A stretch of 64,000 nucleotides of DNA from Candidatus Krumholzibacteriota bacterium (GCA_030667985.1 DAOUUU010000001.1:12020-76019); one strand, 5' to 3'. Numbered from the stretch's first letter, positions 10,415-63,113 are shown. Numbers and translations: made by a program. Notes: generated by a model from the sequence alone, not told the origin.

Positions 10415-10482
10415 CTCTCTTCGTCTCCCTCGTCTGGTTCCCGCCTGACCGTCACCGGCCGACATCTGATCCGAGCAAGAGA

Positions 10483-11397: not shown

Positions 11398-11457
11398 TGT
11401 CTTGCGGGCGTGAATCCGCTCCCTTCACCTCTGCGTGACGGAACTGACGCTAGTTTT

Positions 11458-27461: not shown

Positions 27462-27483
27462 ATGGCACCATCTCTTTTCTTTT

Positions 27484-27618
27484 TTAGACCGCTAATCGCG
27501 CTCTTCCTTTGGCTCTCCTCCTTTTCAACACCAATCGTCCGTTCTTCGTGCTCATTCTCTTTCGAAATCCATGGGTCTTTTTTCTTCTTCCATTGTGCGG
27601 CTGATACGTTCTCTTCAT
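27484..27618 (-). CDS. rpmH: 50S ribosomal protein L34
   Basis: Not in the ORF track (under 60 aa). Manual minus-strand translation gives [44 protein letters not shown] (44 aa). Confidence 0.85.
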
Positions 27619-28165
27619 CTCAATATCTCCTATTTTTGATATTTCACAATGAGTTCCGTTCCCATATCTTACATGTATTAAAGTAATTCACGATAAAAAA
27701 GATCTTCTTCCTTGTCAAGACTTTTATGCCCTTCGCGCTTATCCCCTTATGCCTCCAAAGGTTGCCGGACCATTCCCTTCTTCACAAATCCGCGATTCTC
27801 CATTCCACTTGGTAGTTAAATATTCTGTCACGCGCTATCTTTATATATATCAACCTATTGCAAAATTTTTCCCCCGCCGTGTAAAATTCTCTTGATTAGG
27901 TTTTCCACGTGTGGTAGATTTCGCTCCGCGGGATGGGGGCAACTTCCCCCGTAAAGTGATATTTACAGCATTGTTCTCACATCTTATCCGCTCATCTTGC
28001 TAGAATGTGGAAAACGTTCTGAAGTTGCAGCGAATGGCCCTCCAAACCCGTTGTAAGCGCAAAAAATAGCAGGTTTTCCACAATTGTGGAAAATGGTTGG
28101 TTCGTCAAGGAATAATCAGCCTTTCGCGGGAACGGGTTCTTCCTTGCAGTCAGATATAGGAACCT
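27619..28165. other. oriC part 1: DnaA-box cluster in the rpmH-dnaA intergenic region
   Basis: Multiple near-consensus DnaA boxes are present. They include TTTTCCACG/TGTGGTAGA at 27901-27919, TTATCCGCT at 27984-27992, TGTGGAAAA at 28006-28014 and a perfect 20-bp palindrome TTTTCCACAATTGTGGAAAA at 28074-28093. There are AT-rich stretches at 27631-27700 and 27830-27900. Confidence 0.6.
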
Positions 28166-29542
28166 TTGGGTCATACTGGGCGGAACATAATGGTAACACA
28201 ACAGTTGGGGGAACTCTGGGACCGCGTCCTCGATAGGGCCGGCACGCTCGTTAACGCACAGAGCTTCAAGACCTGGTTCAAGCCCACGAAACTCGTGAAA
28301 TTCGAGGAGGGTCGCCTCATCGTGGAGGGGCCCAACCCGTTTTTCGTAGACTGGCTCTCCGAGCATCACCTCGAAAAGATCGAATTCGCCGCGCGCGAGA
28401 CCCTCGGCGAGGATGTTTCGGTTGAATTCGTCTCGTCCGGCACCCCCCAGCGCACAACATCTCCCGAAGACGGCGTGCGCAGATCGGTTCTCGTCAACAA
28501 GCAGGTGACTCTCCCCAATAAGGTTCACCTGAACGCCCGCTACACATTCGACGAATTCGTCGTCGGCGGCAACAGCCGCCTGGCGCATGCCGCGGCGCTA
28601 GCCGTCGCGGAGCAGCCGGCCCGTGCCTACAACCCCCTGTTTATCTATGGAGGCGTCGGCCTCGGCAAAACCCATCTTATCCAGGCCATCGGGCATCAGG
28701 TGCTCACGGAACACCCCGCGCTGCGCATCTCCTATGTATCCGCCGAGAGCTTCATGAACGAGCTGATCCATGCCATACGCAAGGGCGTGACGCTCGAGTT
28801 CAAGGATCGGTACCGCAACATCGACATTCTCATGATAGACGATATTCAGTTCCTCGCCGGCAAGGAGAGCACGCAGGAGGAGTTCTTTTTCACCTTCAAC
28901 GCACTACACGACGCGAACAAACAGATAGTCGTTACGAGCGACAGGCCCCCAAAGGAGATCCCGAAGCTCCAGGAGCGCCTCACGTCCCGGTTCGAGTGGG
29001 GGTTGATTACGGACATACAGCCGCCCGATCTCGAAACGAGGATCGCCATTCTCCGAAAGAAGGTCGAGAACGAGCGCATCGCCATCCCGGACGACGTCAT
29101 CGAACTTATAGCCGAGAATGTCAAGAGCAACATCCGCGAGCTAGAGGGCTCGTTGATCCGGATACTTGCCTGCTCATCCCTTGCCTGCCAAGAGATCAAC
29201 GTCAAAATGGCCCACAGCGTCCTCAGAGACATCATAAAGGGCTCCCCCAAGAAAACCCCCGATGTAAATACGATCCAGCGGGCTGTCTCGCAGCATTTCG
29301 ACATCCCTGTCGAGACCCTCAAGGCCAAGACGAGAATCAGCCGAGTTGTCCGTGCTCGCCAGGTCGCTATATATATCACGCGCGAGCTCACCGATTGCTC
29401 GCTTGTTCAAATTGGAAAATATTTCGGCGGGCGGGATCACAGTACCATTCTTCACGCGTGCAAGAAAATCGAACGCGAACTCGAGAACGACCCGGCTCTC
29501 GAGAGAAAACTGGAGGCTGTCCGGGAAGATCTCTCCGCCTAG
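28166..29542 (+). CDS. dnaA: Chromosomal replication initiator DnaA
   Basis: AAA+ Walker A GGVGLGKTHL, a sensor region, and the C-terminal DNA-binding domain (VAIYITRELTD..IGKYFGGRDHSTILHACKKIE). The ORF begins with TTG; an in-frame ATG lies 8 codons downstream. Confidence 0.95.
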   Translation: MGHTGRNIMVTQQLGELWDRVLDRAGTLVNAQSFKTWFKPTKLVKFEEGRLIVEGPNPFFVDWLSEHHLEKIEFAARETLGEDVSVEFVSSGTPQRTTSPEDGVRRSVLVNKQVTLPNKVHLNARYTFDEFVVGGNSRLAHAAALAVAEQPARAYNPLFIYGGVGLGKTHLIQAIGHQVLTEHPALRISYVSAESFMNELIHAIRKGVTLEFKDRYRNIDILMIDDIQFLAGKESTQEEFFFTFNALHDANKQIVVTSDRPPKEIPKLQERLTSRFEWGLITDIQPPDLETRIAILRKKVENERIAIPDDVIELIAENVKSNIRELEGSLIRILACSSLACQEINVKMAHSVLRDIIKGSPKKTPDVNTIQRAVSQHFDIPVETLKAKTRISRVVRARQVAIYITRELTDCSLVQIGKYFGGRDHSTILHACKKIERELENDPALERKLEAVREDLSA

Positions 29543-40328: not shown

Positions 40329-41609
40329 TCATTTCATATAGACGAGCCTGCCGTCTTCCATTGTGACATCATCGAATCTTTCGGACAGATTTTCTTTCAT
40401 CTCGATTGCCGCGGGACTTGCCGCCTTGAACTCGTAGCTCCTGTCGAGCTGCCAAACTATGAAGCGGGAAAGGATTATGAACATCAGCGGGACGAGCATC
40501 GGCACGAAGCGACGGATCCTCTGGTGGGTGATGAGGCGCGAGCAGAAGACGGCCCCAGCGCTTATCACTACGACGAAACCTACCGAGACCAGGTAGAGGT
40601 GGCGTATGTTGAGCCAGTCGTCCGGGAACTGGAAAAAGGCGAAGGGAATCACCATGATGTATGTCCAGGCGATGAAGAATCTGATGGGACGGTTGCCGAA
40701 GATGAAACCGAAAAAAGAGTAGGATATGATCGTAAGCGCGATGATGATCCGTATCTCCGTCGCGAATCGGTAGGCGAACCGGACTGCCGTTCCCGACTGG
40801 GCGACGAGGTGAGATGTGTGGATCGGGAAGACCATCCTGACCAGATAGTTGATAACATTCTTGAAGGTCCAGAATATGAACTTGAAGACGCCGGGATTTT
40901 CGGTGTAGAGCGGGGGTCGGTACCCAAAGACCTGTGCCTTGATGATCAGCGCAGTGACCGCGACGACCAGGAGTATGATAAAATTGGCGTTCAGCACACG
41001 CTTGCCCGTCTCGTTCTTGAAAAAGAAGTTGAAACCGAGGAAGGTGCCCAGTATGGCCATGCTCGTGCTCCGCGTAAGCATCGATGTGACAAAGAGGAGC
41101 AGGGTCAGAAGGTAACAGCCGCTCAACGTCTTGCCCCCCCTATCCAGTTCGTTCTTGAAGTAGCAGAGCATCGTCAGCAGCGTGAGCGTAGTTATTAGAA
41201 GATCCTCCAGCCCCGAGGCGATCATGACCGACTTCCCATAGCTCCCCACGGTGAAGACGAAGAGGAGCCCGGACAGAAGGGCTATGGTCCGGTCCTTCAG
41301 GATCGTCTGAACGAGACTGTAGACGAGGAACGAATTGAGGCCGTGCAGAATAATGTTGAAGATAAAATAGCCTTTTGCATTGAAGATAAAGGCCTTGAAC
41401 AGGACGAAGTAGGCCAGGTATGCGAGGGGCTGGAACTTGAACGGAGGCTGGCTCGAGAAGGAGTCGGCGGTTCCATCAATCATCATGAGGCTATGCTGGA
41501 GGGAGAGGAAATCGGCGCCGTGCCAGAATCCGTTGTCCTGAGCCTGGCCGAAGAAGAGATAACCGAGCAGAACAAAACCGCAGAGAATGAGAATGTTCTT
41601 TGCCGCCAT
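40329..41609 (-). CDS. Polytopic membrane protein, GT-C/PMT-like glycosyltransferase fold candidate
   Basis: About 12 predicted TM helices with periplasmic loops, resembling GT39/ArnT-like topology. No catalytic motif confidently identified. Confidence 0.45.
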   Translation of the reverse strand: MAAKNILILCGFVLLGYLFFGQAQDNGFWHGADFLSLQHSLMMIDGTADSFSSQPPFKFQPLAYLAYFVLFKAFIFNAKGYFIFNIILHGLNSFLVYSLVQTILKDRTIALLSGLLFVFTVGSYGKSVMIASGLEDLLITTLTLLTMLCYFKNELDRGGKTLSGCYLLTLLLFVTSMLTRSTSMAILGTFLGFNFFFKNETGKRVLNANFIILLVVAVTALIIKAQVFGYRPPLYTENPGVFKFIFWTFKNVINYLVRMVFPIHTSHLVAQSGTAVRFAYRFATEIRIIIALTIISYSFFGFIFGNRPIRFFIAWTYIMVIPFAFFQFPDDWLNIRHLYLVSVGFVVVISAGAVFCSRLITHQRIRRFVPMLVPLMFIILSRFIVWQLDRSYEFKAASPAAIEMKENLSERFDDVTMEDGRLVYMK

Positions 41610-46706: not shown

Positions 46707-46858
46707 CGGATAGGTCCCCCGTGTGTTGATGGCTCGTATTTGTAGGGTGCCCGGCACCACACCACTTGCAAGCCGGCTTCGATGTATTGTAGTATATTTC
46801 ATATAACATAAAAGGGTTTCAAAAATATTGTATCAAATAGCCCGCAAGGAGCACAGAG

Positions 46859-47503
46859 ATGGAAAAGTTTCTCACCGAATGCGCACAATCGATCATAGAC
46901 GGTAACGCGGAGAAATCAGCGGAGCTTGCCAGGATGGCGCTCGATGACAAGCATCCGGTACTGGAGGTCATAAACAAGGGGTTTGTCAAGGGTATACGCG
47001 AGGTGGGCCGCCTCTGGGAAGAGGGGGCGATGTTCCTGCCCGAGCTCGTGATGGGGGCGGAGGCGATGAAGGAGGCGATGACGGTCCTGCAGCCGGTCCT
47101 TGAGGAGGATGCCGCCGGGAAGAGCGCTGCCGGGCATGTCGTGATCGGCACTATCGAGGGAGATATACATGATATTGGCAAGACGCTCGTAGCGACGATG
47201 CTCTCGGCCAACGGATTCGAGATAACCGATCTCGGCGCAGATGTCCCGGTTGTGCGGTTCGTGGACGAAGCTGTGGAGAAGGGCGCAGGTTGTATCGCGA
47301 TCTCGGCGCTGCTAACGACGACGATGAGCGGTCAGAAAAAGGTCATCGAGGAACTCGAAAGCCGCTCGGTGCGAGACAAGATCAGCGTGATGGTCGGAGG
47401 CGCTCCTTGCAACGACGACTGGGCCAAGGAGATAGGTGCGGACGGATACGCGGGCAACGCAGTCGCGGCCGTTCAACTCGCAAAGAGATTAACCGGCGCA
47501 TAG
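46859..47503 (+). CDS. Cobalamin-binding corrinoid protein (B12 cap + Rossmann B12-binding domain; MtaC/MtgC/MetH-B12 type)
   Basis: DxHxxG motif GDIHDIGK, an SxL region ISALLTTT and a VMVGGAP segment. Confidence 0.85.
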   Translation: MEKFLTECAQSIIDGNAEKSAELARMALDDKHPVLEVINKGFVKGIREVGRLWEEGAMFLPELVMGAEAMKEAMTVLQPVLEEDAAGKSAAGHVVIGTIEGDIHDIGKTLVATMLSANGFEITDLGADVPVVRFVDEAVEKGAGCIAISALLTTTMSGQKKVIEELESRSVRDKISVMVGGAPCNDDWAKEIGADGYAGNAVAAVQLAKRLTGA

Positions 47504-47534
47504 GGTGTCCCGGAGGGGAGACGGGAGAGGGCCA

Positions 47535-48437
47535 ATGGAACATGATCTGATAAAGACGGTCTGGCGCAAAGTCGTCCTGATGGACGGCGGCATGGGCAGC
47601 ATGATCATAGATGCGGGGATGCGCGAGGGGGACATACCGGAAGCCTGGGCTTTGAAGAATCCGGAGAAGCTATCAGCGATACACGCCGCCTATCTCGAAG
47701 CTGGCGCAGAGGTGATACAGACAAACACGTTCGGCGGGAGCAGGCTCAAGCTCCACTCCTCGGAGGCGGGCGCGAAGCTCGATCCGGTTGAGGTTAACAG
47801 GAAGGCAGCCGAGCTCGCCATCAAAGCGGCCAGGGAGCACGATTCCCGGGACCGCTTCGTTGCGGGGGACATCGGACCCACGGGGCTCTTCTTCCCGCCT
47901 GTCGGGCAGCTCGACGAGGAGACGGCGGTTGCCAGCTTCGAGGAGCAGGCGAAGACCCTGGCCGAAGCGGGAGTGGACCTGATCCTGATAGAGACGATGT
48001 ATGATATTCGGGAGGCGGTGGCGGCGGTGAAGGCGGCCCGAAAGGCGACCGGCATTCCGATAATTGCGGAAATCACCTTCGAGAAGAGACCGAAGGGGTA
48101 CTTTACGATGATGGGCGATACGGTCGAGAAGGTCGTCGAACAGCTCGAGGCCGTGGGCGCCGATGCGCTGGGCGCGAATTGCACGCTAACGAGCGAAGAC
48201 ATGCTGGGGCTCGTCAGCGAGTTCCGGGAGAGGACTGCGCTGCCACTCGTCTTTCAGCCCAACGCGGGCCAGCCGGCCATCGAGCACGGCAAGGCTGTTT
48301 ATCGCCAGGATCCTGAGGACTTCGCGAAGGATCTCGAGCTTATCGTCCGTGCCGGCGCGAACGCAGTCGGCGGCTGCTGTGGAACCTCGCCAACATTTAT
48401 CAGGGCGGCGCACGACAGGCTAACGCTTACCGGATAG
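47535..48437 (+). CDS. Homocysteine S-methyltransferase-domain protein (MetH N-terminal Hcy-binding module homologue)
   Basis: Pfam S-methyl_trans pattern VVLMDGGMGSMI, an ALGANCTL region (zinc Cys) and GGCCGTSP (zinc Cys pair) as in MetH/BHMT. Start at MEHDLIK; the ORF extends to 47505. Confidence 0.8.
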   Translation: MEHDLIKTVWRKVVLMDGGMGSMIIDAGMREGDIPEAWALKNPEKLSAIHAAYLEAGAEVIQTNTFGGSRLKLHSSEAGAKLDPVEVNRKAAELAIKAAREHDSRDRFVAGDIGPTGLFFPPVGQLDEETAVASFEEQAKTLAEAGVDLILIETMYDIREAVAAVKAARKATGIPIIAEITFEKRPKGYFTMMGDTVEKVVEQLEAVGADALGANCTLTSEDMLGLVSEFRERTALPLVFQPNAGQPAIEHGKAVYRQDPEDFAKDLELIVRAGANAVGGCCGTSPTFIRAAHDRLTLTG

Positions 48438-48516
48438 GCCCGGAACGGTTTTTCCATCACCGAGCAGAGGTTCGAGCCGGGAGAGGACTCATGCTCCTCG
48501 AACCGGGGGGTTCCAG

Positions 48517-49161
48517 ATGGATCCAGTGATCCAGAAAGATTTCAATATAGCGATCGAACCCAGGGAGGTGAAGCGCCTGCTCGGGTACGGGGAGGAGTCG
48601 GGCCGGGAACCGAGGGAACGCTTCGAAGAAGTCCTTGTCGAGGCGATCGAGCGGGCCGGCAAACTCGTATCGCCGGCTGGAATATATGTGGATGCATCGG
48701 GCGGGGATCTGCCCGGCTCGACCGTGTTCGATGGGCTGGAACGGGTCGCCTACTGTGTCTGCACGATCGGCCCCGAATTGGAGGGGGAGGTTTCGCGTTT
48801 GTCGGGCGGGGACGAGTTGCTTCGGGCGGTCGTCCTCGATGCGGCGGGATCGGTCGCCGCTGAGACGGTAGCGGAGTATATGGACCGGTCGATTCAGGAT
48901 ATGGCGGCAGCCGAGGGGTTGAAGACCTCCTGCCGGGCGAGCCCCGGCTATGGCGATTGGGATATTAGGGAGCAGCGGGCGCTTTTCGAGCTGGTCCCAG
49001 CTGGAAGGATCGGCGTACGCCTCAGCGAGAGCGCGATGATGATCCCGAGAAAATCAGTCTCATTCGCGATCCACATAGATGAGCACCCGGCCCGTATGAG
49101 ATCGGAGAACTCTTGCCGGAACTGCGATCGCACCGATTGCACCTACCGGCTTCTGGAATAG
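48517..49161 (+). CDS. MetH-type reactivation (AdoMet-binding activation) domain protein
   Basis: CRASPGYGDWDIREQRALFELV aligns with the MetH activation-domain motif RPAPGYPACPEHTEK..WELL. 214 aa. Confidence 0.5.
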   Translation: MDPVIQKDFNIAIEPREVKRLLGYGEESGREPRERFEEVLVEAIERAGKLVSPAGIYVDASGGDLPGSTVFDGLERVAYCVCTIGPELEGEVSRLSGGDELLRAVVLDAAGSVAAETVAEYMDRSIQDMAAAEGLKTSCRASPGYGDWDIREQRALFELVPAGRIGVRLSESAMMIPRKSVSFAIHIDEHPARMRSENSCRNCDRTDCTYRLLE

Positions 49162-49203
49162 ATGTGAAGTGAAGACAATGGACCAGAAAGGCGGAAAGAG
49201 AGC

Positions 49204-50664
49204 ATGAGCATTATCCCCCGTGTCACATGGTTCACAGAGGAAGACAGAAAGAGGGTAGTCGCCGAGGCTGTCGAGATACTGGAGAAGATCGGAGTCTTCG
49301 TAGAGAATGACGAAGCAATCGAGCTTCTCTCCGGGGCCGGAGCGCGGGTTGACAGGGACAAGGGCAGGGTCTTCATCCCCGCCTCCATGGTGGAGAAGGC
49401 CGTCGGATCGGCTCCCTCCCGCATCCTCGTCTACAATCGCCATGGAGAACCGGTGATGGATCTGGGTGAGGACCGGATCCATTTCAATCCGGGTTCCGCG
49501 GCTCTACGGATATATGATCATAAAAAGAAGAAGACCCGCACGCCCATGACCGCCGATCTCGTCCGGTTCTCGGCGCTGACCGATGCCTTGCCCAACTACG
49601 CCGCTCAGAGCACCGGTATCGTCTCCGGAGACGTTCCGGAGGAGATAGGGGACCGCTACCGGGTCTATATAGCCCTTCAGAACTCGGTGAAACCAGTCGT
49701 CACCGGTACGTTCTTGATCGACGCCTTCAGGGTGATGCACGAGATGCTCGCAACCGTCGCCGGCGACCAGGGCGCCCTGGCGGAGAAGCCGATGGCGATC
49801 TTTGACTGCTGCCCCTCGCCCCCGCTCAAGTGGAGCGACCTCACCTGCCAGGCGCTGATTGACTGCGCGCGTACGGGCCTCCCCGCCGAGCTCGTCTCGA
49901 TGCCCCTGACCGGGGCCACATCTCCCGTGACGCTGTCCGGCGCGGTCGTGCAGCATGCGGCCGAGAGCCTGAGCGGAGTGGTGATCCATCAGCTCGCAAA
50001 GGCGGGTGCGCCGATCATCTACGGCGGATCTCCCGCCTGCTTTGATATGCGCAAAGGGACGACGCCGATGGGAGCGGTGGAGACGATGATGATAGACGGA
50101 GCCTACGCCGAGATCGGCAAGCACCTCGGCCTTCCCACTCAGGCATACATGGCGCTGAGCGATTCGAAGCGGGTCGACTACCAGGCCGGAATGGAGAGCG
50201 CCATGGGTGCGGCCGTCGCCGCCCTGAGCGGCATCAACAACGTCTCCGGCCCCGGCATGCTCGACTTCGAATCCTGTCAGAGCCTCGAGAAACTCGTTCT
50301 TGATCACGAGATCGCCGGTATGGCGCTACGCCTTACCAGGGGGATCGCATTCAGGGACGATCCAATCGCGCTCCCGTTGATTGAAGCCGCCCTCGAGAAG
50401 AAGGAATTCCTGTCGCTGCCCCATACGGCTAAATGGTACAGGGAGGAGGCCTACTTCCCGAACGCAGTCATCGACCGGAGCACGCTGGAGGAATGGGAGT
50501 CGAAGGGGGGGCTGGACGCCACAGCACGCGCTTCCGAAAGAGTCGAGAAGCTCCTCTCCGATCACGAGCCGGAGCCGCTCGATGATGCGGTCCGCGCGCA
50601 CCTCACAGAGCTCATGGAGCGCGATGCGAAACGCTACGGTATGGACAAACTGCCCGTTACATGA
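49204..50664 (+). CDS. MttB-superfamily (trimethylamine methyltransferase family) methyltransferase, non-pyrrolysine member
   Basis: 486 aa. The N-terminus (TEEDRKRVVAEAVEILEKIGV) and TIM-barrel core are typical of MttB/MtgB-type substrate:corrinoid methyltransferases. There is no in-frame TAG. Confidence 0.75.
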   Translation: MSIIPRVTWFTEEDRKRVVAEAVEILEKIGVFVENDEAIELLSGAGARVDRDKGRVFIPASMVEKAVGSAPSRILVYNRHGEPVMDLGEDRIHFNPGSAALRIYDHKKKKTRTPMTADLVRFSALTDALPNYAAQSTGIVSGDVPEEIGDRYRVYIALQNSVKPVVTGTFLIDAFRVMHEMLATVAGDQGALAEKPMAIFDCCPSPPLKWSDLTCQALIDCARTGLPAELVSMPLTGATSPVTLSGAVVQHAAESLSGVVIHQLAKAGAPIIYGGSPACFDMRKGTTPMGAVETMMIDGAYAEIGKHLGLPTQAYMALSDSKRVDYQAGMESAMGAAVAALSGINNVSGPGMLDFESCQSLEKLVLDHEIAGMALRLTRGIAFRDDPIALPLIEAALEKKEFLSLPHTAKWYREEAYFPNAVIDRSTLEEWESKGGLDATARASERVEKLLSDHEPEPLDDAVRAHLTELMERDAKRYGMDKLPVT

Positions 50665-51961
50665 TCGCCGCCTTGAGGGCGAACTGCACGCGGATACTGT
50701 CGTAGTCCCGTTCCCTCGTATCGACCGATCCGCCGCTCATCGTTTTGTGGAGATAGGTCGTTTTGAGATAGGAGCCTTCGATCATCGCGGTGACATTCCT
50801 TGTGATGCTGTACATGAGATTTCCGAAGAGTACGGAATTCATGGTGATCATCGAGTGAGAGCTGTCGTCCGGGATGATGAAGTCCGAATCGTCCGGATTG
50901 TCGAAGCAGTACCCGGCGTTAAGCAGGGTTCTTTCCGCCGGGACGAGAGAGATCATCCCCCATCCGCCAGATGCTCCGAGCTCGTTGAAGGTGGGGCTGT
51001 AGTCCTGCAGGACGCCGCCGAAGTAGGTCGCGAGATTCTGTCCCATGAAGTACTCGCCGCTGATCGTCATCTTGTCTGTGAGCTTCAGCTTGAGATCGAC
51101 GTTGAAGGACCATGAGTCGAGCTCTCGTGTCGCATTGTCTACGAGCTCACCCATCTCGAATGTCTTGATCCTAGCCTTTTCCTTGCCGTAGTGGCCCGAG
51201 ACGCCGAGCCATGCGTGTCCCTGGCCGCCGAAACCGCTCTCGAACCCGAGGCGCCCCTGAACGGTCGGGAATCCGGCGGCGGAGCCGTCGTCATATCCGT
51301 CGCCCGTCTCACACTCCCCGTCCTCACAGATTATATCGAGATCGTGCGCCAGCGTCCGCGCGGCAGCTATTGCGGCTGTGACTTTCTTCGAGCCCATATC
51401 AGCCGTCCCGGTGAAGCGGAACTGCGGGCGCCGGTAGCCGATGTTACCCTGGCCCCAGCCGACCGTGTAGTTGACGGTCTTGGGAACGAGGGGGGAGATG
51501 ACGTCGCTCGTCTGGCCTGCGAGGATCGACCAGCAGCCCCTGGAGAGCTTGAGATATGCGTGGCGGAGCATCGGGGCGGCCTTGTTCTCCATTGAGATCA
51601 AATTCGAGGGAGCGGCGCCGAGTCCGTAGAAGTCGAACTCGAGCTTCGCGGCCGTCCGCCAGTCCTGCTCGATCCAGGCGAAATCGAATCCCAGCCTGGT
51701 CTCGCGGGCCGTCATATGTGTGGCGCTCCCCTCGGCATCCTCGAGCACTTTTATTGCGAAGTTGCCGGGCCAGGTGCGAAGCTCGTCAAAGGCGTAGTCC
51801 GCCTTGAAGTAGCCGCTAAACTTGAAGCTGTAGGAGGTGCACTTCTTCTCCTCTTCCTTCGCCTCGGCCTCGCCTTTCTTGAGCGTCTCGGCAGCGCCCG
51901 CTGGAATCGTCAGCGTGAAGGCCGTCAGGGCTATAAGGGCTGTCGATCGAAGCAGATTCAT
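50657..51961 (-). CDS. Outer-membrane porin-like beta-barrel protein
   Basis: Signal peptide (AGA-AE). 434 aa with alternating beta-strand pattern, many G/Y/F/D. Convergent with the MttB-family gene, overlapping by 8 nt. Confidence 0.5.
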   Translation of the reverse strand: MNLLRSTALIALTAFTLTIPAGAAETLKKGEAEAKEEEKKCTSYSFKFSGYFKADYAFDELRTWPGNFAIKVLEDAEGSATHMTARETRLGFDFAWIEQDWRTAAKLEFDFYGLGAAPSNLISMENKAAPMLRHAYLKLSRGCWSILAGQTSDVISPLVPKTVNYTVGWGQGNIGYRRPQFRFTGTADMGSKKVTAAIAAARTLAHDLDIICEDGECETGDGYDDGSAAGFPTVQGRLGFESGFGGQGHAWLGVSGHYGKEKARIKTFEMGELVDNATRELDSWSFNVDLKLKLTDKMTISGEYFMGQNLATYFGGVLQDYSPTFNELGASGGWGMISLVPAERTLLNAGYCFDNPDDSDFIIPDDSSHSMITMNSVLFGNLMYSITRNVTAMIEGSYLKTTYLHKTMSGGSVDTRERDYDSIRVQFALKAAIM

Positions 51962-52050: not shown

Positions 52051-53571
52051 TCAGTCGGACAGTTTCCTGTCGTAGAGTCGCCACGGGGGGATCTCCCGAA
52101 GGAGCGCACGTCCCGAGACGTGGTGACCGGCGAGCTTCGGGATGTTTCCTCTCGTGAGCAGGTAATCCATCTCTTCGTACCGGCCTTGGGAGCCGTCCGT
52201 CTTTCCGGCCCATTCCTTGTAGTGGGGGAGCCGCGCTCCGCCCGGCCTGCGCCGTACCGAGCCAAACCGGTAATCCACTAGAGAGGTTGCGGCGATTCCT
52301 CCCTTCCACACCGTGTAGTATGATGGGAAGTGAAGATAGACTGCATGGTTTCGGTACTCGTGATCCATGATGAGCCCGGCGAGCCTCCCGCCGGTCTTCT
52401 CCGGGGGAAAGAACGATGAATCGAAACCTTTGTTCTCTGAATCGAAGCCGGCGAAGTAGCTGGCCCAGAGGATGAGGTGAACAGCGGCTGCGGCTATATA
52501 GAGGGTCCTCGGGAGCGATCCGATCCCAGAACGTTTGACGCATGCGCCCAGAAACACCAGGGAGAGAAGCAGCAGGACGGAGAATCTTTGGTACAGGATC
52601 GTCTGTTGGGGGATCTCGTGCGGGAGGAGAAAGAAGCTGGCGAGCGAACAGGCGAAGAGGATAAAGGGAACCGACCGGACAAGTCTGCCGCGGTCCGATT
52701 TTCCGTGGGCGCGAATAAGGCTGATAACCCCGGGCGCGGCGATGGCGCAAGTCAGTGCCGAGCCCGCGAGGATCCCGTACCATTCCTTGTAGAGATGGTA
52801 GTTGTCGAGGAAGAGTATGTGAGCTCTCGGCAATATACTTTGAAAGAAACCGCCCGCATAGTAGACGGTCAGGAATCTGGCCAAGCCCTCTCCACCCTGC
52901 TGGGAACGCCACCAGACGACAAATAGCAACACGAGGGGCAGAGCTGGAGCGAGACGGGAGAGAAGCTCGAGAGGTCCGCCACGGGATCGGATCAGGCCGC
53001 AGACAACGAAGATCAGCAGCGCGAAGAGCGCCGCGAGGGCGTGGACGAAAAAGAGCGATACGAACAGAAGTGTGAGCAACGCTGTCTTGCCTGATCCTCC
53101 CTGTTCGAAGTATCCGACGAGCAATCCGGCGAAGAGCAGGACGAGGGAGATCGAGAAGAAGAATCCAACGAAGCCCCAGCTCACACTGTAGTTGTAGAGA
53201 AGCACGAATGCGGCGATCGAGTGCCAGTGGTTTCCGCCTGTCCGTCTCAGAAAAAACAGGGCCGAAAGCGGCAGGAGTAATATGTAGAGAGAGAGAAAGA
53301 CCCGGTTCGCGAACTCCACGGACGGAAAGAACTTCAGGCTGCAGAAGAGCGGGTGAAATACATTCGGACGGGGGAATAGCTCGATCTTGAAATAGTCGGA
53401 GAATGAGACGGCCGGATCGCTGTAGTGACGTATGATCGTCGCCGCTGCCAGATGATTGGGCAGATCGGTGAAGGGAAAGAGCCTCGTCGTCCAGATCATG
53501 ACGAGATGGAGCGCGATGAATCCGGCGAAGACCGGAACGAACCAGCATCTGTCGGATCTAGTGCTCAGCAT
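52051..53571 (-). CDS. Polytopic integral membrane protein with C-terminal periplasmic domain (GT-C-like / unknown function)
   Basis: At least 12 hydrophobic helices in the first ~400 aa. The overlapping ORF 52040..53548 in another frame is Arg/Pro-rich and rejected. Confidence 0.5.
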   Translation of the reverse strand: MLSTRSDRCWFVPVFAGFIALHLVMIWTTRLFPFTDLPNHLAAATIIRHYSDPAVSFSDYFKIELFPRPNVFHPLFCSLKFFPSVEFANRVFLSLYILLLPLSALFFLRRTGGNHWHSIAAFVLLYNYSVSWGFVGFFFSISLVLLFAGLLVGYFEQGGSGKTALLTLLFVSLFFVHALAALFALLIFVVCGLIRSRGGPLELLSRLAPALPLVLLFVVWWRSQQGGEGLARFLTVYYAGGFFQSILPRAHILFLDNYHLYKEWYGILAGSALTCAIAAPGVISLIRAHGKSDRGRLVRSVPFILFACSLASFFLLPHEIPQQTILYQRFSVLLLLSLVFLGACVKRSGIGSLPRTLYIAAAAVHLILWASYFAGFDSENKGFDSSFFPPEKTGGRLAGLIMDHEYRNHAVYLHFPSYYTVWKGGIAATSLVDYRFGSVRRRPGGARLPHYKEWAGKTDGSQGRYEEMDYLLTRGNIPKLAGHHVSGRALLREIPPWRLYDRKLSD

Positions 53572-56660: not shown

Positions 56661-57743
56661 ATGGACATGCGTGTGAAGTATGTGGCCCTTATCCTGCTGG
56701 GCGCGTTTCTCCTGGCCGCAGTCGCTCTGCCGGCCATGGCCGACGAGAAGTCGAAGAAATTTCCGAAGTTCTTCACTCCCAAAACGGCTGTGGAGGTCGG
56801 CGAGTTCATCGAGGGCAAGGATATCGAGTATACCTTCATTGTTAGAAATCATGGACTCGCGGAACTGCATATCAACAGTGTGAGGCCTGGCTGAGGCTGC
56901 GCGGTGGCCGACCATGACAAGGTCATCCCTTCCGGGTCGGAAGGAAAAATTTCAGTCAAGATCAACGGGCACAAGATACACCCCGGACGCTTCAAGAAGA
57001 GCTGGACGGTGAGCACGAACGATCCCGATAACAAGCGGCTGGTCCTCTATGTCGGCGGCTCGGTCAAGAAGGTCTTCGAGTTCTCGGGACAGCTCTCCAT
57101 GTCCGGGTTCAGGGATGAGGAGATGGAGGAAGAGATGATCCTGACCAATCTTCTCGACGAGCCGATCAACATAAAGGGATGGAGTTGGGACGAGAAGTCG
57201 GCCAAAAGGGGCATCGAAGAGAAGATCGGCATCAAGCTCGACGTGGTGGAGCAGGGGCGGAAGTACAAGATCTCCGCCTGGAAGAGATCCGGGGTCAAAC
57301 CCGAGCATTACAGGGGCGAGATCGTTCTCGAGACCGACCATCCGGAAATCAAGGAGAAGAAGATCGGTGTCAGGATGACGGTGACTCCCGATGTCGAGGT
57401 TCATCCGAACAAGGTCTATTTCGGCGAGATGATCGTCAAAGAGGGCGTGAGTAAGAGCTTCGACCGCCAGATCCGCATCATCGCGTCGAGGAGCGACACC
57501 CTCAAGATATTGAAGGTCGTCCCGGACAGCGATGAGATAACGGTCAAGATCCAGGAGGTGCAGGCGGGAAAGGTCTACAAGGGAACCGTCAGCGTGAGGC
57601 CCCCGTCGAAGGTGGGTACCTACCAGGGGAGCATCAAGATCTACACGAATTATCCCGGGTACGAGGAGCTGATAGTCGTGGTCGCGGGCGCGATACGTCA
57701 ATCGTCGCAGGCTACGAAATTCAAGGATAAGAAGCGCCCCTGA
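56661..57743 (+). CDS. DUF1573-family secreted protein interrupted by a single in-frame TGA (56892-56894): candidate selenoprotein, or pseudogene
   Basis: ORFs 56634..56894 and 56904..57743 are in the same frame, separated only by TGA GGC TGC GCG. The joined product has a signal peptide (AMA-DE) and the DUF1573 pattern. In that pattern the conserved R-[AS]-S-C-G-C-T motif reads R-P-G-TGA-G-C-A. Start is the ATG at 56661 after GGGAGGG. Confidence 0.55.
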
Positions 57744-57828
57744 GCGGCGTTGTAACATATAACCGTAATCGGGTGCGCACTTCGATGAAGGGCGCGCCCG
57801 ATTCATTGTAGAGAAAGGCATTGCCGAT

Positions 57829-58740
57829 ATGAAGCTGCGTATGATAACGGGCACGCTGATACTACTGCTTTTCGCCGGAGCCCTCGACGCGTTCGGTGAT
57901 TCGGCGGCCGAATTCGAGCGGATGATGGCCGAGCTGCTTCAGAAGAAGCAGCAGGTCGATCCTCAGGAGTTCTTGCTGGTCGCCGAGCAGCGCATGACCG
58001 ATTTTCTGGAAAAATATCCCGACTCGCCCGAAGCGGCCGATGTTCACCTGAACCTTGGACAGCTCTTCGCCCAGGCGGGATCTCCCGATAGGGCCGTCTC
58101 TCATCTCGAGATCTACCTCGAGCACAGCGTGGGCAGGATGCCGGTGGAGGTGGCGGTGGCCAAGTTCTTCCTGGCGCAGGGGTACATAGCCCGGGACGAA
58201 TTCGACAAGGCAGAGCTGTATCTCCAGGAGGTGCAAGCCTCGGGGGATGCCGCCCCATTGCAGCTACGGCAGATGACGGAGATGTCGATCCAGAGGATAC
58301 CGATCCTCAAAAAGCTCAAGATAGGCAACCCGGCCCTGCCGATCGACGCCGAGACGACCGCCGGAGACCGGATTGCACTCGGATCCTACAGGGGCAAGGT
58401 GCTGTTGGTCGATTTCTGGGCTAGCTGGTGCAAGCCGTGCAGGCAGGAGATGCCGACAGTGAAATCTGTTTACAAGGAGTTCCACGAAAAGGGATTCGAG
58501 ATACTCGGAATCTCCCTGGACCAGAGCGAGGCGAGCTTTGAGGGCTACATAGAGGAGCAGGGCATAACCTGGCCCCAGATCTTCGACGGCAAGGGATGGA
58601 AGAGCTCCGTTGGACAGCGGTATGGGATCAATTCGATTCCCGCGACATTTCTGATCGACCGAAAAGGCACGATCAGGTACAGGGACCTGCGCGGCGACAA
58701 GCTTCGGGAAGCGGTGCGGGAACTCATCGAGTCAGGGTGA
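57829..58740 (+). CDS. TlpA/ResA-like thiol:disulfide oxidoreductase (thioredoxin fold) with N-terminal helical-repeat domain
   Basis: C-terminal thioredoxin domain with the WCKPC active site (LVDFWASWCKPCRQEMP). N-terminal TPR-like region and signal peptide. Confidence 0.8.
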   Translation: MKLRMITGTLILLLFAGALDAFGDSAAEFERMMAELLQKKQQVDPQEFLLVAEQRMTDFLEKYPDSPEAADVHLNLGQLFAQAGSPDRAVSHLEIYLEHSVGRMPVEVAVAKFFLAQGYIARDEFDKAELYLQEVQASGDAAPLQLRQMTEMSIQRIPILKKLKIGNPALPIDAETTAGDRIALGSYRGKVLLVDFWASWCKPCRQEMPTVKSVYKEFHEKGFEILGISLDQSEASFEGYIEEQGITWPQIFDGKGWKSSVGQRYGINSIPATFLIDRKGTIRYRDLRGDKLREAVRELIESG

Positions 58741-58918: not shown

Positions 58919-59971
58919 ATGCACTTTATCGACTCGACAAATTTTGAGAGGCTTTTGAAAAAGCTCTCTAGCGAGGGAGAGCTTTTTGTTCCTGTCCGGA
59001 ACGAAGAAAACGGCAAGCTCTCGCTCTCGCGCGTGGATGCCTTCCCGCTTGACGAGAATGTCTGTTTCGACGGATATCGGACCGTCGAGCCTCTCAAGGG
59101 CTTTGCCCAGTTCCTGAGGTCTCCCGTCGCCGAATACCCGTCGGCGGACAGTGACGAGATGGCCGATCCGGATGGTTTTCCCGACTATATAGTCGTGGGC
59201 GCGCGCGCCTGCGATGTCAACTCCCTCGAGCTCATCGACAGGATCCAGGTCGAGGGCGAATTCATCGATCCTTTCTACAAGATACGGCGGGACAAGTTGC
59301 TTTTGATAGCCGCCGATTGTTCCGAGTGCGGCGATAGCTGTTTCTGCACGCTGCTGGGGAATAAGCCGTGGCCGGAAAAGGGCTTCGATCTATCTATCGC
59401 AAAAGTGAGCGGCGGATTCGTCGTCGATATCGGTTCGGACCGGGGGACGGCGGTATTCGAGGAGAACAAGGATCTCTTCACCGAGACCCGAGAAGGCCAG
59501 ATCAAGGCGAGGGATGAGATCAGGGAAAGGGTCGCCAGCGAGCTCGAACAAAAGAACAAGGACTTTCCGGCTGCCGACAAGCTTCCCGAAATACTCAGGG
59601 GAGCTCTAAACGACGAGGTCTGGGACGAGATCGCGGCGCACTGCGTTGAATGCGGAGCCTGCACGAACATCTGCCCGACCTGTTACTGCTTCCTGTTGTT
59701 CGACCAGAAACTTGACGGGGAACATTTTCAGCGGGTCCAGAGCTGGGATTCTTGCCAGGTCACCGGCTACGCCCGGATGGCTGGAATGCTGAATCCGAGG
59801 CCCAGGCTCACGGACCGGGTCAAGCACCGTTACTATCACAAGTACGATTATCTCGTGTCGAGTCACGAGGCGATCTACTGCACCGGATGCGGCAGGTGCA
59901 TCGATACCTGCTCGGCCGGTATAGACATGCGTGAATCCTTTAAAAAGGTGAAAGAGAAAGCAAAAAGGTAG
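58919..59971 (+). CDS. Fe-S subunit, AsrA/sulfhydrogenase-beta (HydB)-like
   Basis: Two ferredoxin-type cysteine motifs (CVECGACTNICPTCYC and CTGCGRCIDTCSAG). 350 aa. Confidence 0.65.
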   Translation: MHFIDSTNFERLLKKLSSEGELFVPVRNEENGKLSLSRVDAFPLDENVCFDGYRTVEPLKGFAQFLRSPVAEYPSADSDEMADPDGFPDYIVVGARACDVNSLELIDRIQVEGEFIDPFYKIRRDKLLLIAADCSECGDSCFCTLLGNKPWPEKGFDLSIAKVSGGFVVDIGSDRGTAVFEENKDLFTETREGQIKARDEIRERVASELEQKNKDFPAADKLPEILRGALNDEVWDEIAAHCVECGACTNICPTCYCFLLFDQKLDGEHFQRVQSWDSCQVTGYARMAGMLNPRPRLTDRVKHRYYHKYDYLVSSHEAIYCTGCGRCIDTCSAGIDMRESFKKVKEKAKR

Positions 59972-60804
59972 TGAAAGCGGAACAAATGAAAAACCCGTAC
60001 TACCCAATAGACGCGGTCATCGAGGAGATCATCGAAGAGACACCGACGATCAAGACGTTCGTGCTGAAGCCGGCACGGCCGATCGAGTTCCGCGCGGGGC
60101 AGTTCATGCAGCTGACCCTCCCGGGTATCGGCGAAGCGCCCTTTACACCGAGCTCGTCTCCCAAGGTGACCGAGAAGATGGAGATCACGATCCTTCGGAC
60201 GGGCAAGGTGACCGACGCCCTCCACGAGAGCGAAGCGGGCGCGAAGGTGGGACTCAGGGGACCTTTCGGCAAGGGATATCCGCTCGACAAACTCAAGGGC
60301 AAGGAGGTGCTCCTCGTTGGAGGAGGCGTTGGCCTGGCGCCCCTGCGCTCGCTGATCCATGCTCTGCTCGACAAGCCGTCGGACTACAAGCGGATCTCGA
60401 TAAAGAACGGAGCGAGGCTTCCCGAGGAACTCTGTTTCAATGACCAGTACGATGAGTGGGGCAATGCCGCTCCGAACGTGGATTTCACCTGCACGATCGA
60501 TACTCCCGCGTCTGGATGGGAGGGCAAGGTGGGCCTCGTTACGACGCTGCTCGATAATCTCGACATCGACATAGAGAATAGCATAGCGCTCTCCTGCGGG
60601 CCGGAGATAATGCTCAAGTTTGTTACCCTGAAACTACTGGAGGTTGGTTACAAGCCTCCTCAGATCTACCTGTCGATGAATCGCAAGATGTCGTGCGGCA
60701 TGGGCAAGTGCGGGCGCTGTAACGTCGGGCACTACTATCTCTGTGTCGACGGCCCCGACATGTGTTACGACAAGATCAAGCACGTACCGAACGTGTTCGG
60801 ATAA
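59971..60804 (+). CDS. FAD/NAD(P)-binding oxidoreductase subunit with C-terminal [2Fe-2S] (AsrB/HydG/PyrK-like)
   Basis: Flavin-binding RAGQF region, a GGGVGLAP NAD(P) fold and a C-terminal CGMGKCGRC...C cluster. Confidence 0.7.
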   Translation: MKAEQMKNPYYPIDAVIEEIIEETPTIKTFVLKPARPIEFRAGQFMQLTLPGIGEAPFTPSSSPKVTEKMEITILRTGKVTDALHESEAGAKVGLRGPFGKGYPLDKLKGKEVLLVGGGVGLAPLRSLIHALLDKPSDYKRISIKNGARLPEELCFNDQYDEWGNAAPNVDFTCTIDTPASGWEGKVGLVTTLLDNLDIDIENSIALSCGPEIMLKFVTLKLLEVGYKPPQIYLSMNRKMSCGMGKCGRCNVGHYYLCVDGPDMCYDKIKHVPNVFG

Positions 60805-60846
60805 ACCCGGACGGCCCAGGCCGGGCCGTGTAACCGGAGAAGAGAT

Positions 60847-62619
60847 ATGAGAGAGATCAAAGGAAACTGTTCGTTTTGCTCGCTCGCCTGCCCCCTCGTC
60901 TTCAGAGGCGGCGGGAGATCGCCGATGTTCGGGAGCGAGTCCCTCCTGACCCTCGATTGGGACACTGGTGAGGGCTCGAAATACGGAGGGAGCCTCTGCG
61001 CCCGCGGCAGCGCGGCCGTGGAGTTCGTATCGCATCCGGACCGTATGAACTATCCGTGGATCCTCGGTGAACGCTCGGTCATGCATGCTGCGGTCAGCGA
61101 AACGGCGAAAAACCTGATTGCTATAAAGGAAGAATTCGGAAGCGACAAAATCGGTCTTCTGATCGGCGATAACTTGACGGTTGAAGAGGCGTCGCTGGCG
61201 CGCATGTTCGCAAAAGAGGTTCTCGGGACCGAGAACGTAGCTCTCTTCGCGCCGGATGATATGCCGATCTTCAGGGGCTACACCGGCTGTGACCTCTCCA
61301 GCGTGAAAGCTTCGGGCGCCAAGCCGGAGGGCGACCGTGAAGTCGCACTTATCGTCGGGGATTCGTTCGCGGACCATCCCTGCACGGCGAAGCTGGTTCT
61401 GCCGGGCAAGTACGGAACGCGTGGTAGCGAGATCATCGTCATCTCTCCCGAGCGCGGCAACACGGCCTGGTTCGCCAACAGGCACCTCAGGTGCGCGCCC
61501 GGCGGCGACACGGCTGTTCTGGCAGGGCTTCTCAAGGCTCAGCTCGAAAAGGGAGCCGGTAGTGTGCCGGCCGAATTCCAAAAGCTGGTGGAGGGTTTGA
61601 GCTGGAACGAGATCGAGAACCTCTCCGGCGTCGGCAAGGATCAGATGGTCCTGGCGGCCGAGTCGATGCTCGGCGCTGCGAAAGTAAGAACATACGTATC
61701 CAATATATACGGTCGTTTCGGCAATCCGGCACTCTCCGTTCTATTTGCCGAAGCGGTGGCGCGCCTCTGCCCGGGGCTCGAGACCTTCACGCCTCAGTTC
61801 GTTCAGCAGAACACATGGGGTGTCTATGCGGCCCTCGCCGGCACGAACAGCAGCGACGTGATCGAAAAGCTGAGCAAGGGAGAATTGAAAGCGCTCATAA
61901 TACTGGGACTCGATATATTCAGCGCCTCTCCGGCCGCGCCGGTCGAGAAGGCCCTGCGAGAGAAGAAATTCACAGTTACGACACAACTGTTCTGGAACCA
62001 GACCGCATCCCGGGCCAACGTTGTGATCCCCGCGGCGGCACTAGTGGAGAAGAAGGGGACGGTATGGCCCGAGTTCGGCGAGGATTTGAAACGGGACGGC
62101 CTGCTCGAATCACCGGGAGGAACTATAAGCGACGCGGGTTTCCTGAAGCTCCTGTCGAAAGAGATGGGCACAGAGCTTGGAGAGCCGCCGGCCGTCACCG
62201 AACCGGCCAGAAGCGGTTCCTGCGACTGGGTGGTCCTCGAGTGGAGTTCCTACGCGGGGCTGCTCAAGGAGCTCAACCTCGCAGATACGGTGCTTATACC
62301 CTGGAGCGATCCGGTCCATGTAGGCGACGGGTCCTTGAGCAGGAAGTTTCATTGGTCTCACATGTCGAGGCCCGAACCGGTGCTCATGGTTTCGAACGAG
62401 CTGGCCGATTCTTTGGGGCTCGATGACGGCGATACGGCGACCGTAACCTCGAGCGCCGGCGAGGCGGCTTTACAGATACAGAAAACTGACAAGCTGTCGG
62501 GAAAAGTGGTTGGAGCCACGATTCACTTCCCGAAGGTGCGCAAGCTCTTTCCCTGGAAGCTGGACGAGAAGACGGGGGAGATATGCCTGGCGCCGATTTC
62601 TGTGAAGGTCACCCGGTAG
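60847..62619 (+). CDS. Molybdopterin oxidoreductase catalytic subunit, FdhF-like formate dehydrogenase (Cys-type)
   Basis: The N-terminal CSFCSLAC motif is a CxxCxxxC [4Fe-4S] site. MopB domain; Cys in SLCARG at the position where Sec occurs in Sec-FDHs. No internal stop. Confidence 0.75.
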   Translation: MREIKGNCSFCSLACPLVFRGGGRSPMFGSESLLTLDWDTGEGSKYGGSLCARGSAAVEFVSHPDRMNYPWILGERSVMHAAVSETAKNLIAIKEEFGSDKIGLLIGDNLTVEEASLARMFAKEVLGTENVALFAPDDMPIFRGYTGCDLSSVKASGAKPEGDREVALIVGDSFADHPCTAKLVLPGKYGTRGSEIIVISPERGNTAWFANRHLRCAPGGDTAVLAGLLKAQLEKGAGSVPAEFQKLVEGLSWNEIENLSGVGKDQMVLAAESMLGAAKVRTYVSNIYGRFGNPALSVLFAEAVARLCPGLETFTPQFVQQNTWGVYAALAGTNSSDVIEKLSKGELKALIILGLDIFSASPAAPVEKALREKKFTVTTQLFWNQTASRANVVIPAAALVEKKGTVWPEFGEDLKRDGLLESPGGTISDAGFLKLLSKEMGTELGEPPAVTEPARSGSCDWVVLEWSSYAGLLKELNLADTVLIPWSDPVHVGDGSLSRKFHWSHMSRPEPVLMVSNELADSLGLDDGDTATVTSSAGEAALQIQKTDKLSGKVVGATIHFPKVRKLFPWKLDEKTGEICLAPISVKVTR

Positions 62620-62633
62620 AGAGAGAAAAGATA

Positions 62634-63113
62634 ATGGAGAAGAGAGTCTACATAAACATGAACCTGTGCACCGGCTGCCGCTCCTGCGCTGCGGCATGCG
62701 CCCAGGGGCATCACCAGCAGGGACTTCTCAAGCACGGGGCGGTTCAGGAAGCGGCTATGCTGCCGATGCACTGCAGGCATTGCGACACGCCCCTCTGCCT
62801 CGAGGTCTGTCCCCAGGAAGCGATCAAGAAGGACGAGAACGGGACGATAGTGCGGATGACGCACCTCTGTATCGGCTGTAAGTCCTGCATCATGTCCTGC
62901 CCCTTTGGCGTCATGTTCATGTATTCCGTGTGGCACGTTTCGCCGAAGTGCGATCTTTGTCACGACCGACTCGAGGAGGGCAAGGAGCCGCGGTGCGTGG
63001 CGACCTGCACCTCGGGAGCGCTCGTCTTCGAGGAACTGACCGAGCTGGAGAAGAAACAGAAACGAGCGGTAGAAGGCGGCAGGTATTACGCCCGGTTCAT
63101 GCTCAACCGTTAG
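62634..63113 (+). CDS. 4Fe-4S ferredoxin-type electron-transfer subunit (HycB-like)
   Basis: Four CxxCxxCxxxCP-type clusters (CTGCRSCAAAC, CRHCDTPLCLEVCP, CIGCKSCIMSCP, CDLCHDRL..C). Confidence 0.8.
   Translation: MEKRVYINMNLCTGCRSCAAACAQGHHQQGLLKHGAVQEAAMLPMHCRHCDTPLCLEVCPQEAIKKDENGTIVRMTHLCIGCKSCIMSCPFGVMFMYSVWHVSPKCDLCHDRLEEGKEPRCVATCTSGALVFEELTELEKKQKRAVEGGRYYARFMLNR

Follow-up and report, generated by a model that had tools for sequence, protein, structure and literature searches.

The 64,000-nucleotide (nt) stretch of Candidatus Krumholzibacteriota DNA analyzed here (GCA_030667985.1, DAOUUU010000001.1:12020-76019; hereafter the window, with positions counted from its first letter) contains a cluster of four genes that we call C, E, A, and B: C codes for a corrinoid (cobalamin-binding) protein, E for a stand-alone homocysteine-binding zinc methyltransferase of the MetH type, A for a stand-alone S-adenosylmethionine (AdoMet) reactivation protein of the TM0269 type, and B for a non-pyrrolysine methyltransferase of the MttB superfamily. 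It is rather probable that this operon encodes a multi-component cobalamin-dependent methyl-transfer system ending in methionine. Such a methyl route had been proposed in an initial annotation of the region; it stands as the most economical reading of the operon, but its betaine donor, its replacement of the pterin domain and its claim to novelty do not stand in the form in which they were put forward (see below).

The listing of open reading frames (ORFs) in the window placed the four genes at 46859–47503, 47505–48437, 48517–49161, and 49204–50664, all on the + strand, and their translations contained every motif on which the initial annotation of four co-directional genes had relied. The longest ORF of E starts with a GTG at 47505, 1 nt past the stop codon of C, and comprises 310 amino acids. 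A 100%-identical database gene model of 300 amino acids (P0121) begins instead at the ATG at 47535, which is preceded by a GGGAGAGGG stretch resembling a ribosome-binding site (RBS). Because the gene model and the purine-rich RBS agree, translation of E most likely begins at ATG 47535 and yields a protein of 300 amino acids (47535–48437). The spacers are accordingly 31 nt between C and E, 79 nt between E and A, and 42 nt between A and B. A purine-rich RBS-like stretch was read directly ahead of each gene, the one upstream of C being AAGGAG at 46846–46851. Since the spacers are of only 31–79 nt, a terminator consensus scan detected no terminator-like site on the + strand within the cluster, and the gene order is conserved in other genomes (see below), a single operon is the best explanation of this arrangement. 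Upstream, the cluster is bounded by a divergent Zn-alcohol-dehydrogenase gene, and the 56 nt between this gene and C (46803–46858), read directly, are AT-rich and presumably contain the promoter region. A scan for sigma-70 consensus promoters found none on the + strand, a scan that is uninformative for a bacterium of the Fibrobacterota–Chlorobiota–Bacteroidota (FCB) type, and an Rfam search for cobalamin, SAM, or tetrahydrofolate riboswitches returned just two sub-threshold chance matches. The downstream boundary is formed by a 434-amino acid ORF (50657–51961) that converges with B and has no Pfam match; its N-terminus looks like a signal peptide.

The four domain assignments made in the initial annotation were all recovered by profile searches. 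C (46859–47503; 214 amino acids) matched PF02607 (74.6 bits) and PF02310 (91.2 bits), combining a cap and a Rossmann domain with the His-on signature DxHxxG...SxL...GG, present as GDIHDIG, SAL, and VGGAP. Residues D102, H104, G107, S149, L151, G180, and G181 were invariant wherever aligned in 63 sequences. Among NCBIfam models, C scored 213.0 bits with TIGR02370, against a cutoff of 215.3, and 214 bits with the MtgC model NF047995, against a cutoff of 310. Its best matches in the PDB were the Moorella corrinoid protein 1Y80 and Methanosarcina barkeri MttC (7XCN), with 162 bits each, versus 101 bits for the B12 domain of MetH. Given this difference and the TIGR02370 score just under threshold, C is probably a corrinoid protein of the MttC/MtgC type rather than a detached MetH domain, with which the earlier wording of "corrinoid protein" is consistent.

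E, for which the initial annotation had proposed membership of the homocysteine-binding family, matched PF02574 (S-methyl_trans) with 233.9 bits and contains the motifs LMDGGMGSMI, GANCTL, and GGCCGTSP. Its closest structural relative was the homocysteine module of Thermotoga maritima MetH (1Q7M; 175 bits), followed by that of Thermus thermophilus MetH (128–136 bits), whereas the structures of BHMT and MmuM gave 64 and 59 bits, respectively. In the 310-amino acid numbering, C226, C291, and C292 align with C207, C272, and C273 of the T. maritima protein and E163 with its E146; these residues and Asp27 align with MetH and were invariant wherever aligned in 55 sequences. Following the roles reported by Evans et al. 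(2004), we take the three cysteines to be the zinc ligands and E163 to be the acidic residue that binds homocysteine. Profile, three zinc cysteines, and acidic residue together identify E, at the level of sequence, as a MetH-type homocysteine module. The best 120 homologues in the database were all stand-alone proteins of about 300 amino acids.

An assignment of E to the MmuM or BHMT type was therefore considered and rejected on those scores of 59–64 bits versus 175 bits. The corresponding explanation of the locus, in which E would be an independent corrinoid-free enzyme of the MmuM/YagD or BHMT type, using S-methylmethionine, AdoMet, or a betaine directly and sharing no more than its regulation with a separate B-C-A demethylase that has another acceptor elsewhere, seems improbable to us. 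E does have an MmuM-like length (about 300–310 amino acids), belongs to the same Pfam family, and scored 212.8 bits on the NCBIfam model "betaine--homocysteine S-methyltransferase", below its cutoff of 338. Against this stand its closer similarity to the cobalamin-dependent MetH modules than to the cobalamin-independent BHMT and MmuM, which supports a corrinoid route, and its place between C and A in a gene order shared by 39 species. Moreover, alphaproteobacterial proteins annotated as "BHMT" are corrinoid-linked MtgE modules (PMC12478193).

A (48517–49161; 214 amino acids) was the weakest of the four domain assignments, with 31.8 bits on PF02965 (Met_synt_B12) against a cutoff of 25. A profile built from 20 A sequences of diverse loci gave a single match in the PDB, 1J6R (E = 1.3e-15, nearly full length), a structure labeled by Foldseek as TM0269. 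An AlphaFold (AF2) model of A generated with 40 homologues had a predicted local distance difference test (pLDDT) value of 89.9 and a predicted template-modeling (pTM) score of 0.88. When this model was compared with the PDB by Foldseek, the top 19 matches were all AdoMet-binding activation domains of MetH, in the order TM0269/1J6R (template-modeling scores 0.75/0.81), T. thermophilus, Escherichia coli, and human. The motifs R140-x-SPGYG-x-W (R140-A-S-P-G-Y145), equivalent to the RxxxGY AdoMet motif of MetH, and PRKS were invariant in the homologue alignments. The predicted fold thus firmly places A with TM0269 and the activation domains of MetH, and AdoMet-dependent re-methylation of cob(II)alamin is its predicted activity. 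In T. maritima, TM0269 is encoded apart from the rest of MetH and serves to reactivate it (Huang et al., 2007, as cited in PMC7857596). The A family also has a conserved C-terminal tail, C200-x2-C203-x4-C208 (CxxCx4C), and a mostly conserved C82. TM0269 (1J6R) ends ahead of this region and has no counterpart there. The tail, with model pLDDT values of just 60–74, may be a binding site for Zn or an Fe-S cluster.

B (49204–50664; 486 amino acids) matched PF06253 (MTTB) with 295.4 bits against a cutoff of 25, over profile positions 28–496 of 500, and TIGR02369 with 407 bits, under the equivalog cutoff of 525. It is about 30% identical both to DhMtgB (211 bits) and to pyrrolysine-containing MttB (203 bits). 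Its ORF is uninterrupted by any in-frame stop codon, and the position of pyrrolysine in M. barkeri MttB (Pyl334) is occupied by Leu318. An identification as pyrrolysine MttB was rejected on the grounds of this Leu318, the lack of an in-frame UAG, and the sub-cutoff TIGR02369 score. In DhMtgB, mutagenesis and a ligand-bound structure have shown that glycine betaine is bound by Y97, R312, H348, and F356, of which R312 recurs in the enzymes acting on carnitine, proline betaine, gamma-butyrobetaine, and phosphocholine (PMC13080624). The alignment gave S98, Q313, S348, and E356 at these positions of B, so that none of the four residues was kept. An identification as MtgB was consequently rejected as well, given the identity of about 30% to DhMtgB.

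These replacements bear on the methyl donor, for which the initial annotation had suggested a "betaine-type" compound. Judging by its active-site residues, B does not bind glycine betaine in the way MtgB does, and the loss of the Arg312 equivalent (Q313) makes it unlikely that B holds any carboxylated betaine in the manner known from those enzymes. A methylated amine is the probable donor. The positions concerned form a signature, S-[HQ]-[LM]-S-E (Leu/Met being the pyrrolysine column), that all members of the clade share, irrespective of the partners with which they occur. This uniformity in the face of differing partners points to one class of substrate for B, with acceptor and reactivation modules that would be interchangeable. 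B is best described as a member of a distinct, uncharacterized clade of the MttB superfamily and presumed to be a methyl-donor:corrinoid methyltransferase.

Taken together, the four domain assignments held, E proved to belong to the homocysteine-binding family, no Pfam-scanned ORF in the transcription unit or the rest of the window matched a pterin-binding family, and B did not group with enzymes known to have an unrelated function. For these reasons a route through B, C, and E is the most economical explanation of the operon. In this route B, a TIM-barrel protein acting as the first methyltransferase (MT1), would bind a small methylated compound, and Co(I) of C would take its methyl group to give CH3-Co(III). 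E, as the second methyltransferase (MT2), would hold homocysteine as a zinc thiolate and take the methyl group from CH3-Co(III)-C, forming methionine and regenerating Co(I). Whenever Co(I) was accidentally oxidized to Co(II), A would re-methylate the cofactor with AdoMet and an external one-electron donor, as in MetH. The net reaction would be X-CH3 + homocysteine -> X + methionine, without methyl-tetrahydrofolate. It would imply that the proteins interact and that methyl groups flow from B toward E, and it would serve an anaerobe either to obtain methionine or to salvage methyl groups.

The distribution of these genes was surveyed with one genome per GTDB species, taking the 80 loci with the closest MttB homologues (at least 54% identical), onto which C, E, A, and B were mapped by tblastn, with targeted Pfam scans of odd loci. 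The order C-E-A-B, all on one strand, was found in 39 of the 80 loci, belonging to Krumholzibacteriota, Zixibacteria, Ignavibacteria, Latescibacterota, Terriglobales/Acidobacteriota, Phycisphaerales, and "Deltaproteobacteria". Genomes with this order include CP070727.1 (cluster at about 1.82 Mb; MttB 79% identical) and GCA_003369535.1. Six further loci showed E-A-B, mostly on contigs cut upstream, and the orders E-C-A-B (one locus), B-A-C-E (one), C-E-B (two), and C-B-x-E (two) were rarer. E adjoined B in 51 of the 80 loci, which also reach Planctomycetota and Gemmatimonadota. Because 39 loci have exactly the arrangement C-E-A-B on one strand, the association of E and B in a cluster is far beyond chance, and the cluster is conserved across phyla. 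Of the remaining arrangements, one locus had B followed by C and two had A and B only, one of these on a truncated contig.

Two of the loci altered the acceptor side of the cluster. In a complete Gemmatimonadota chromosome (CP070758.1; L048, 6232–10158), the gene between B and E codes for a 265-amino acid Pterin_bind protein (D; PF00809), and a 71%-identical homologue lies at the same position in L049 (2363–6168), which comes from another MAG. Both loci are arranged as C-B-D-E without an A gene, a layout like that of MtgBCDE within the same MttB clade. A tblastn search with the L048 pterin protein detected no homologue in any other locus (±7 kb) or in the window. The reactivation side varied too: in L080 and L081 (4537–6312; Aminicenantes), an activase of the RACo/RamA type (Fer2 + RACo) lies upstream of C-B and A is lacking, and this alternation of A and RACo beside C-B fits A as the reactivation component. 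The initial annotation had called a MetH-like activator next to an MttB system unusual. This is true of the characterized MttB systems, but within the clade of B such an activator is the rule.

The two C-B-D-E loci also speak for the main rival explanation, modeled on the MtgBCDE system of roseobacters, in which C would be a shared hub: B would pass methyl groups mainly to tetrahydrofolate through an unlinked pterin methyltransferase, for one-carbon oxidation or assimilation, E would make methionine mainly from methyl-tetrahydrofolate with the pterin enzyme working in reverse, and direct transfer from X-CH3 to homocysteine would be incidental. We regard this explanation as unlikely, though worth serious consideration. 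It draws on the finding that MtgC and the pterin protein MtgD are both needed for methionine synthesis and growth on glycine betaine, with genes scattered in Ruegeria pomeroyi (PMC12478193), and on the variants with C, A, and B that lack E, which imply that B and C can serve other acceptors. It is weakened by the rarity of pterin genes, none being found within ±7 kb in 40 of the 42 complete loci of the C-E-A-B type that were inspected (the exceptions being the two C-B-D-E loci), by a tblastn search that used one query and had limited reach and is thus weaker for the loci than the Pfam scan is for the window. In the window, no match to Pterin_bind (PF00809), RACo, or DUF1638 was found among the Pfam-scanned ORFs, which comprised every greedy non-overlapping ORF of at least 170 amino acids, and tblastn searches with pterin and RACo probes likewise returned nothing in its 64 kb. 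Finally, homocysteine is the sole acceptor for which the tight four-gene operon encodes a protein.

Several observations weigh against the proposed flow of methyl groups from B through C to E. B is not always accompanied by E, as nine of the 80 loci had C, A, and B without E, four had only C and B, and 13 had B alone. The pterin gene between B and E in L048 and L049 implies that the same MttB clade can feed tetrahydrofolate. In R. pomeroyi, the only experimentally studied analogue, the pterin protein MtgD was indispensable to the cells both for making methionine and for growing on glycine betaine (PMC12478193). The metagenome-assembled genomes (MAGs) of Ca. Electryoneota that carry the cluster also encode, according to their description (PMC9324843), a normal full MetH, so that the system need not be the methionine synthase of the cell. 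An unlinked pterin methyltransferase, MetH, or MetE may lie beyond the 64 kb window. No flavodoxin or ferredoxin partner for A is encoded in the operon, and no electron donor for A in the window. Our literature search found no biochemical or genetic data for this MttB clade. The statement in the initial annotation that the pterin domain is replaced by an MttB-type enzyme is accordingly unproven from the window, in view of both the two pterin-containing loci and the full MetH of Electryoneota.

The direction of the proposed flow could in principle be the opposite, with methyl groups derived from AdoMet through A, or from methionine through E, and B methylating an amine to give an osmolyte or another metabolite. 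Corrinoid methyl transfers are reversible in principle, and MtgD has been proposed to be bidirectional (Mausz et al., PMC12478193). All characterized enzymes of the MttB family are, however, demethylases. The chemistry would be unfavorable as well, since a thioether gives up its methyl group to Co(I) only poorly, and the AdoMet-dependent methylation in the activation domain of MetH is an electron-requiring repair and not a catalytic cycle. This explanation is accordingly very improbable, and transfer from a methylated donor to homocysteine is retained here.

The cluster is not new as a genomic object. Williams et al. (2022, Environ Microbiol, PMC9324843) describe, in MAGs of Ca. Electryoneota and in "diverse bacteria", a four-part cluster comprising a non-pyrrolysine MttB/MtgB homologue, a homocysteine S-methyltransferase, a corrinoid protein, and an activation protein. 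There the MttB homologue is placed outside the clades of MtgB and pyrrolysine MttB, and corrinoid-dependent methionine synthesis is hypothesized from a purely genomic description, with the methyl donor left unnamed. Our cluster agrees with that description in all four components, in a non-pyrrolysine MttB outside both named clades, and in the proposed role; it differs in its host, the phylum there being Electryoneota and the nearest named homologues here coming from Krumholzibacteriota. A literature search found no biochemical follow-up of the 2022 cluster.

Experimental support for a related arrangement comes from roseobacters, in which genetics on mtgC and mtgD established that methionine synthesis and the ability to grow on glycine betaine both depend on MtgC (Mausz et al., 2025, PNAS, PMC12478193). 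In the model of those authors, an MttB-type enzyme and a stand-alone PF02574 homocysteine module work with one and the same corrinoid protein, and MtgBCDE is reported from Ruegeria pomeroyi, Phaeobacter inhibens, and Sinorhizobium meliloti; the same paper cites the split MetH of Price et al. (2018) alongside MtgBCDE. The shared corrinoid protein and the link between amine demethylation and methionine would be common to MtgBCDE and the cluster described here. MtgBCDE differs in needing the pterin protein MtgD and in having reactivation by RamA and DUF1638, a CmuA-like MtgC, aerobic proteobacterial hosts, and genes that are often scattered. The cluster of the window has no pterin gene detected in operon or window, a TM0269-type activator, an MttC/MtgC-like C, and a B without the glycine betaine site, and no Pfam-scanned ORF of the window matched PF00809, RACo, or DUF1638, as membership of MtgBCDE would require. 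The cluster described in 2022 and this shared corrinoid protein put out of date the earlier statement that MttB systems couple only to tetrahydrofolate methyltransferases.

Other known systems share parts of the cluster. In the split MetH of T. maritima (TM0268 + TM0269; 1Q7M, 1J6R) the activation module is separate, as here, with about 214 amino acids in both cases, and the homocysteine module of TM0268 and TM0269 are the nearest relatives of E and A, respectively. TM0268, however, fuses the homocysteine, pterin, and B12 modules, whereas the window has homocysteine and B12 modules as separate proteins, a B12 protein resembling the methylamine type, an MttB enzyme in the place of the pterin module, and an A with an added CxxCx4C tail. 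The quaternary-amine systems (DhMtgB/MtgC/MtgA, Eubacterium limosum MtcB, MtpB, MtyB, and MthB) likewise combine an MT1 of the MttB superfamily with an MttC-like corrinoid protein, and DhMtgB has, like B, Leu at the pyrrolysine position. Their acceptor (DhMtgB, E. limosum) is tetrahydrofolate, reached through a pterin MT2, and their reactivation is of the RamA type; B is about 30% identical to these enzymes and has lost the carboxylate-binding Arg312. Transfer to a thiol has been achieved in vitro, where MtgB, a corrinoid protein, and the zinc thiol methyltransferase MtaA together methylated a thiol with glycine betaine as the donor, at a conversion of >99% (PMC13618148). A candidate second methyltransferase of the metH family, close to a pyrrolysine MttB and its corrinoid protein, was pointed out by Kivenson et al. 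(2021).

The novelty assigned to the cluster in the initial annotation was thus overstated, as both cluster and hypothesis were published in 2022 (PMC9324843) and a shared corrinoid protein was proposed in 2025 (PMC12478193). The cluster of the window adds a representative from another phylum to a kind known from earlier in silico descriptions, and is functionally analogous to MtgBCDE. Since the idea had been published, this instance adds supporting detail: new here are the mapping of the active site of B, the confirmation of the fold of A, and the variety of gene arrangements that the clade displays. They reveal a clade with a conserved pocket of its own, unlike those of MtgB and pyrrolysine MttB, a TM0269-type activator, and acceptor and reactivation modules that are swapped among lineages. 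The system is real and widespread, and specialists who know the 2022 and 2025 papers would not find it surprising.

As a more tentative proposal, in which we have less than even confidence, C-E-A-B could be a true folate-independent B12 methionine synthase that uses a donor other than a carboxylated betaine (a simple methylamine handled without pyrrolysine, or a cationic or neutral methyl compound) through its S/[HQ]/S/E pocket, with a metal or Fe-S center in the Cys tail of A supplying or relaying the electron so that no flavodoxin would be needed. If the proposed route to methionine is correct, many uncultured anaerobic lineages (Krumholzibacteriota, Zixibacteria, Latescibacterota, Ignavibacteria, Acidobacteriota, and Planctomycetota) could make methionine directly from environmental methylated compounds, bypassing methyl-tetrahydrofolate. 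The known methionine synthases would then gain a further class, sediments a new sink for methylamines or osmolytes, and the communities concerned an additional demand for cobalamin. The system would also be a natural case in which modules for methyl donors and methyl acceptors are combined around one corrinoid protein, of use in biocatalysis.

Some loci of the survey showed additional features around the cluster. Transport genes adjoined it in three of them, coding for EamA (L037, 1764–2681), an amino-acid permease (L058, 8461–9831), and SBP_bac_5 (L077, 9478–11268), and may give a hint of the substrate. About 18 distinct loci of the Krumholzibacteriota type (L001, 9499–11976; L003, L007, L010–L018, L021, L024, L025, L032, L033, and L052) had an extended operon, with genes for an isochorismatase-family hydrolase, a thioredoxin-reductase-like flavoprotein, and a radical-SAM protein (weakly RlmN/Cfr-like) downstream of B; none of these three genes was found anywhere in the 64 kb window, and they do not belong to the feature described here. 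In L004/L031 (957–1855), from a MAG labeled Coprothermobacterota and without A, the homocysteine methyltransferase gene between C and B occupies two frames, 957–1310 and 1364–1855, through either a frameshift or assembly error or the decay of this copy.

For B, E, and A, the closest homologues with a named source came from Candidatus Krumholzibacteriota MAGs, and the local synteny of the M49 peptidase, alcohol dehydrogenase, cluster, NadA, NifU, and NifS genes also occurs on Krumholzibacteriota contigs. The window as a whole is a chromosomal origin region: on the + strand, dnaA is followed by dnaN, recF, gyrB, and gyrA, while parAB, gidAB, mnmE, and yidC are - strand genes upstream of it. In the region 27186–29542, the cumulative GC-skew minimum falls at dnaA (28166–29542), and the replication origin probably lies in the gap of about 1 kb preceding this gene. 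Four ORFs of 300–506 amino acids (40329–41609, 50657–51961, 52051–53571, and 56952–57854) had no Pfam match, and two of them resemble polytopic membrane proteins by sequence. A four-gene redox module at 58919–63113, coding for Fer4_22, FAD/NAD-binding + DHODB-type Fe-S, molybdopterin oxidoreductase, and Fer4_11 ferredoxin-like subunits, suggests an anaerobic lifestyle. The window also contains three tandem PPIase/SurA-like genes (835–4806) and an aerotolerance-type operon with BatA/VWA, DUF58, and MoxR (AAA_3) genes (8264–12441).

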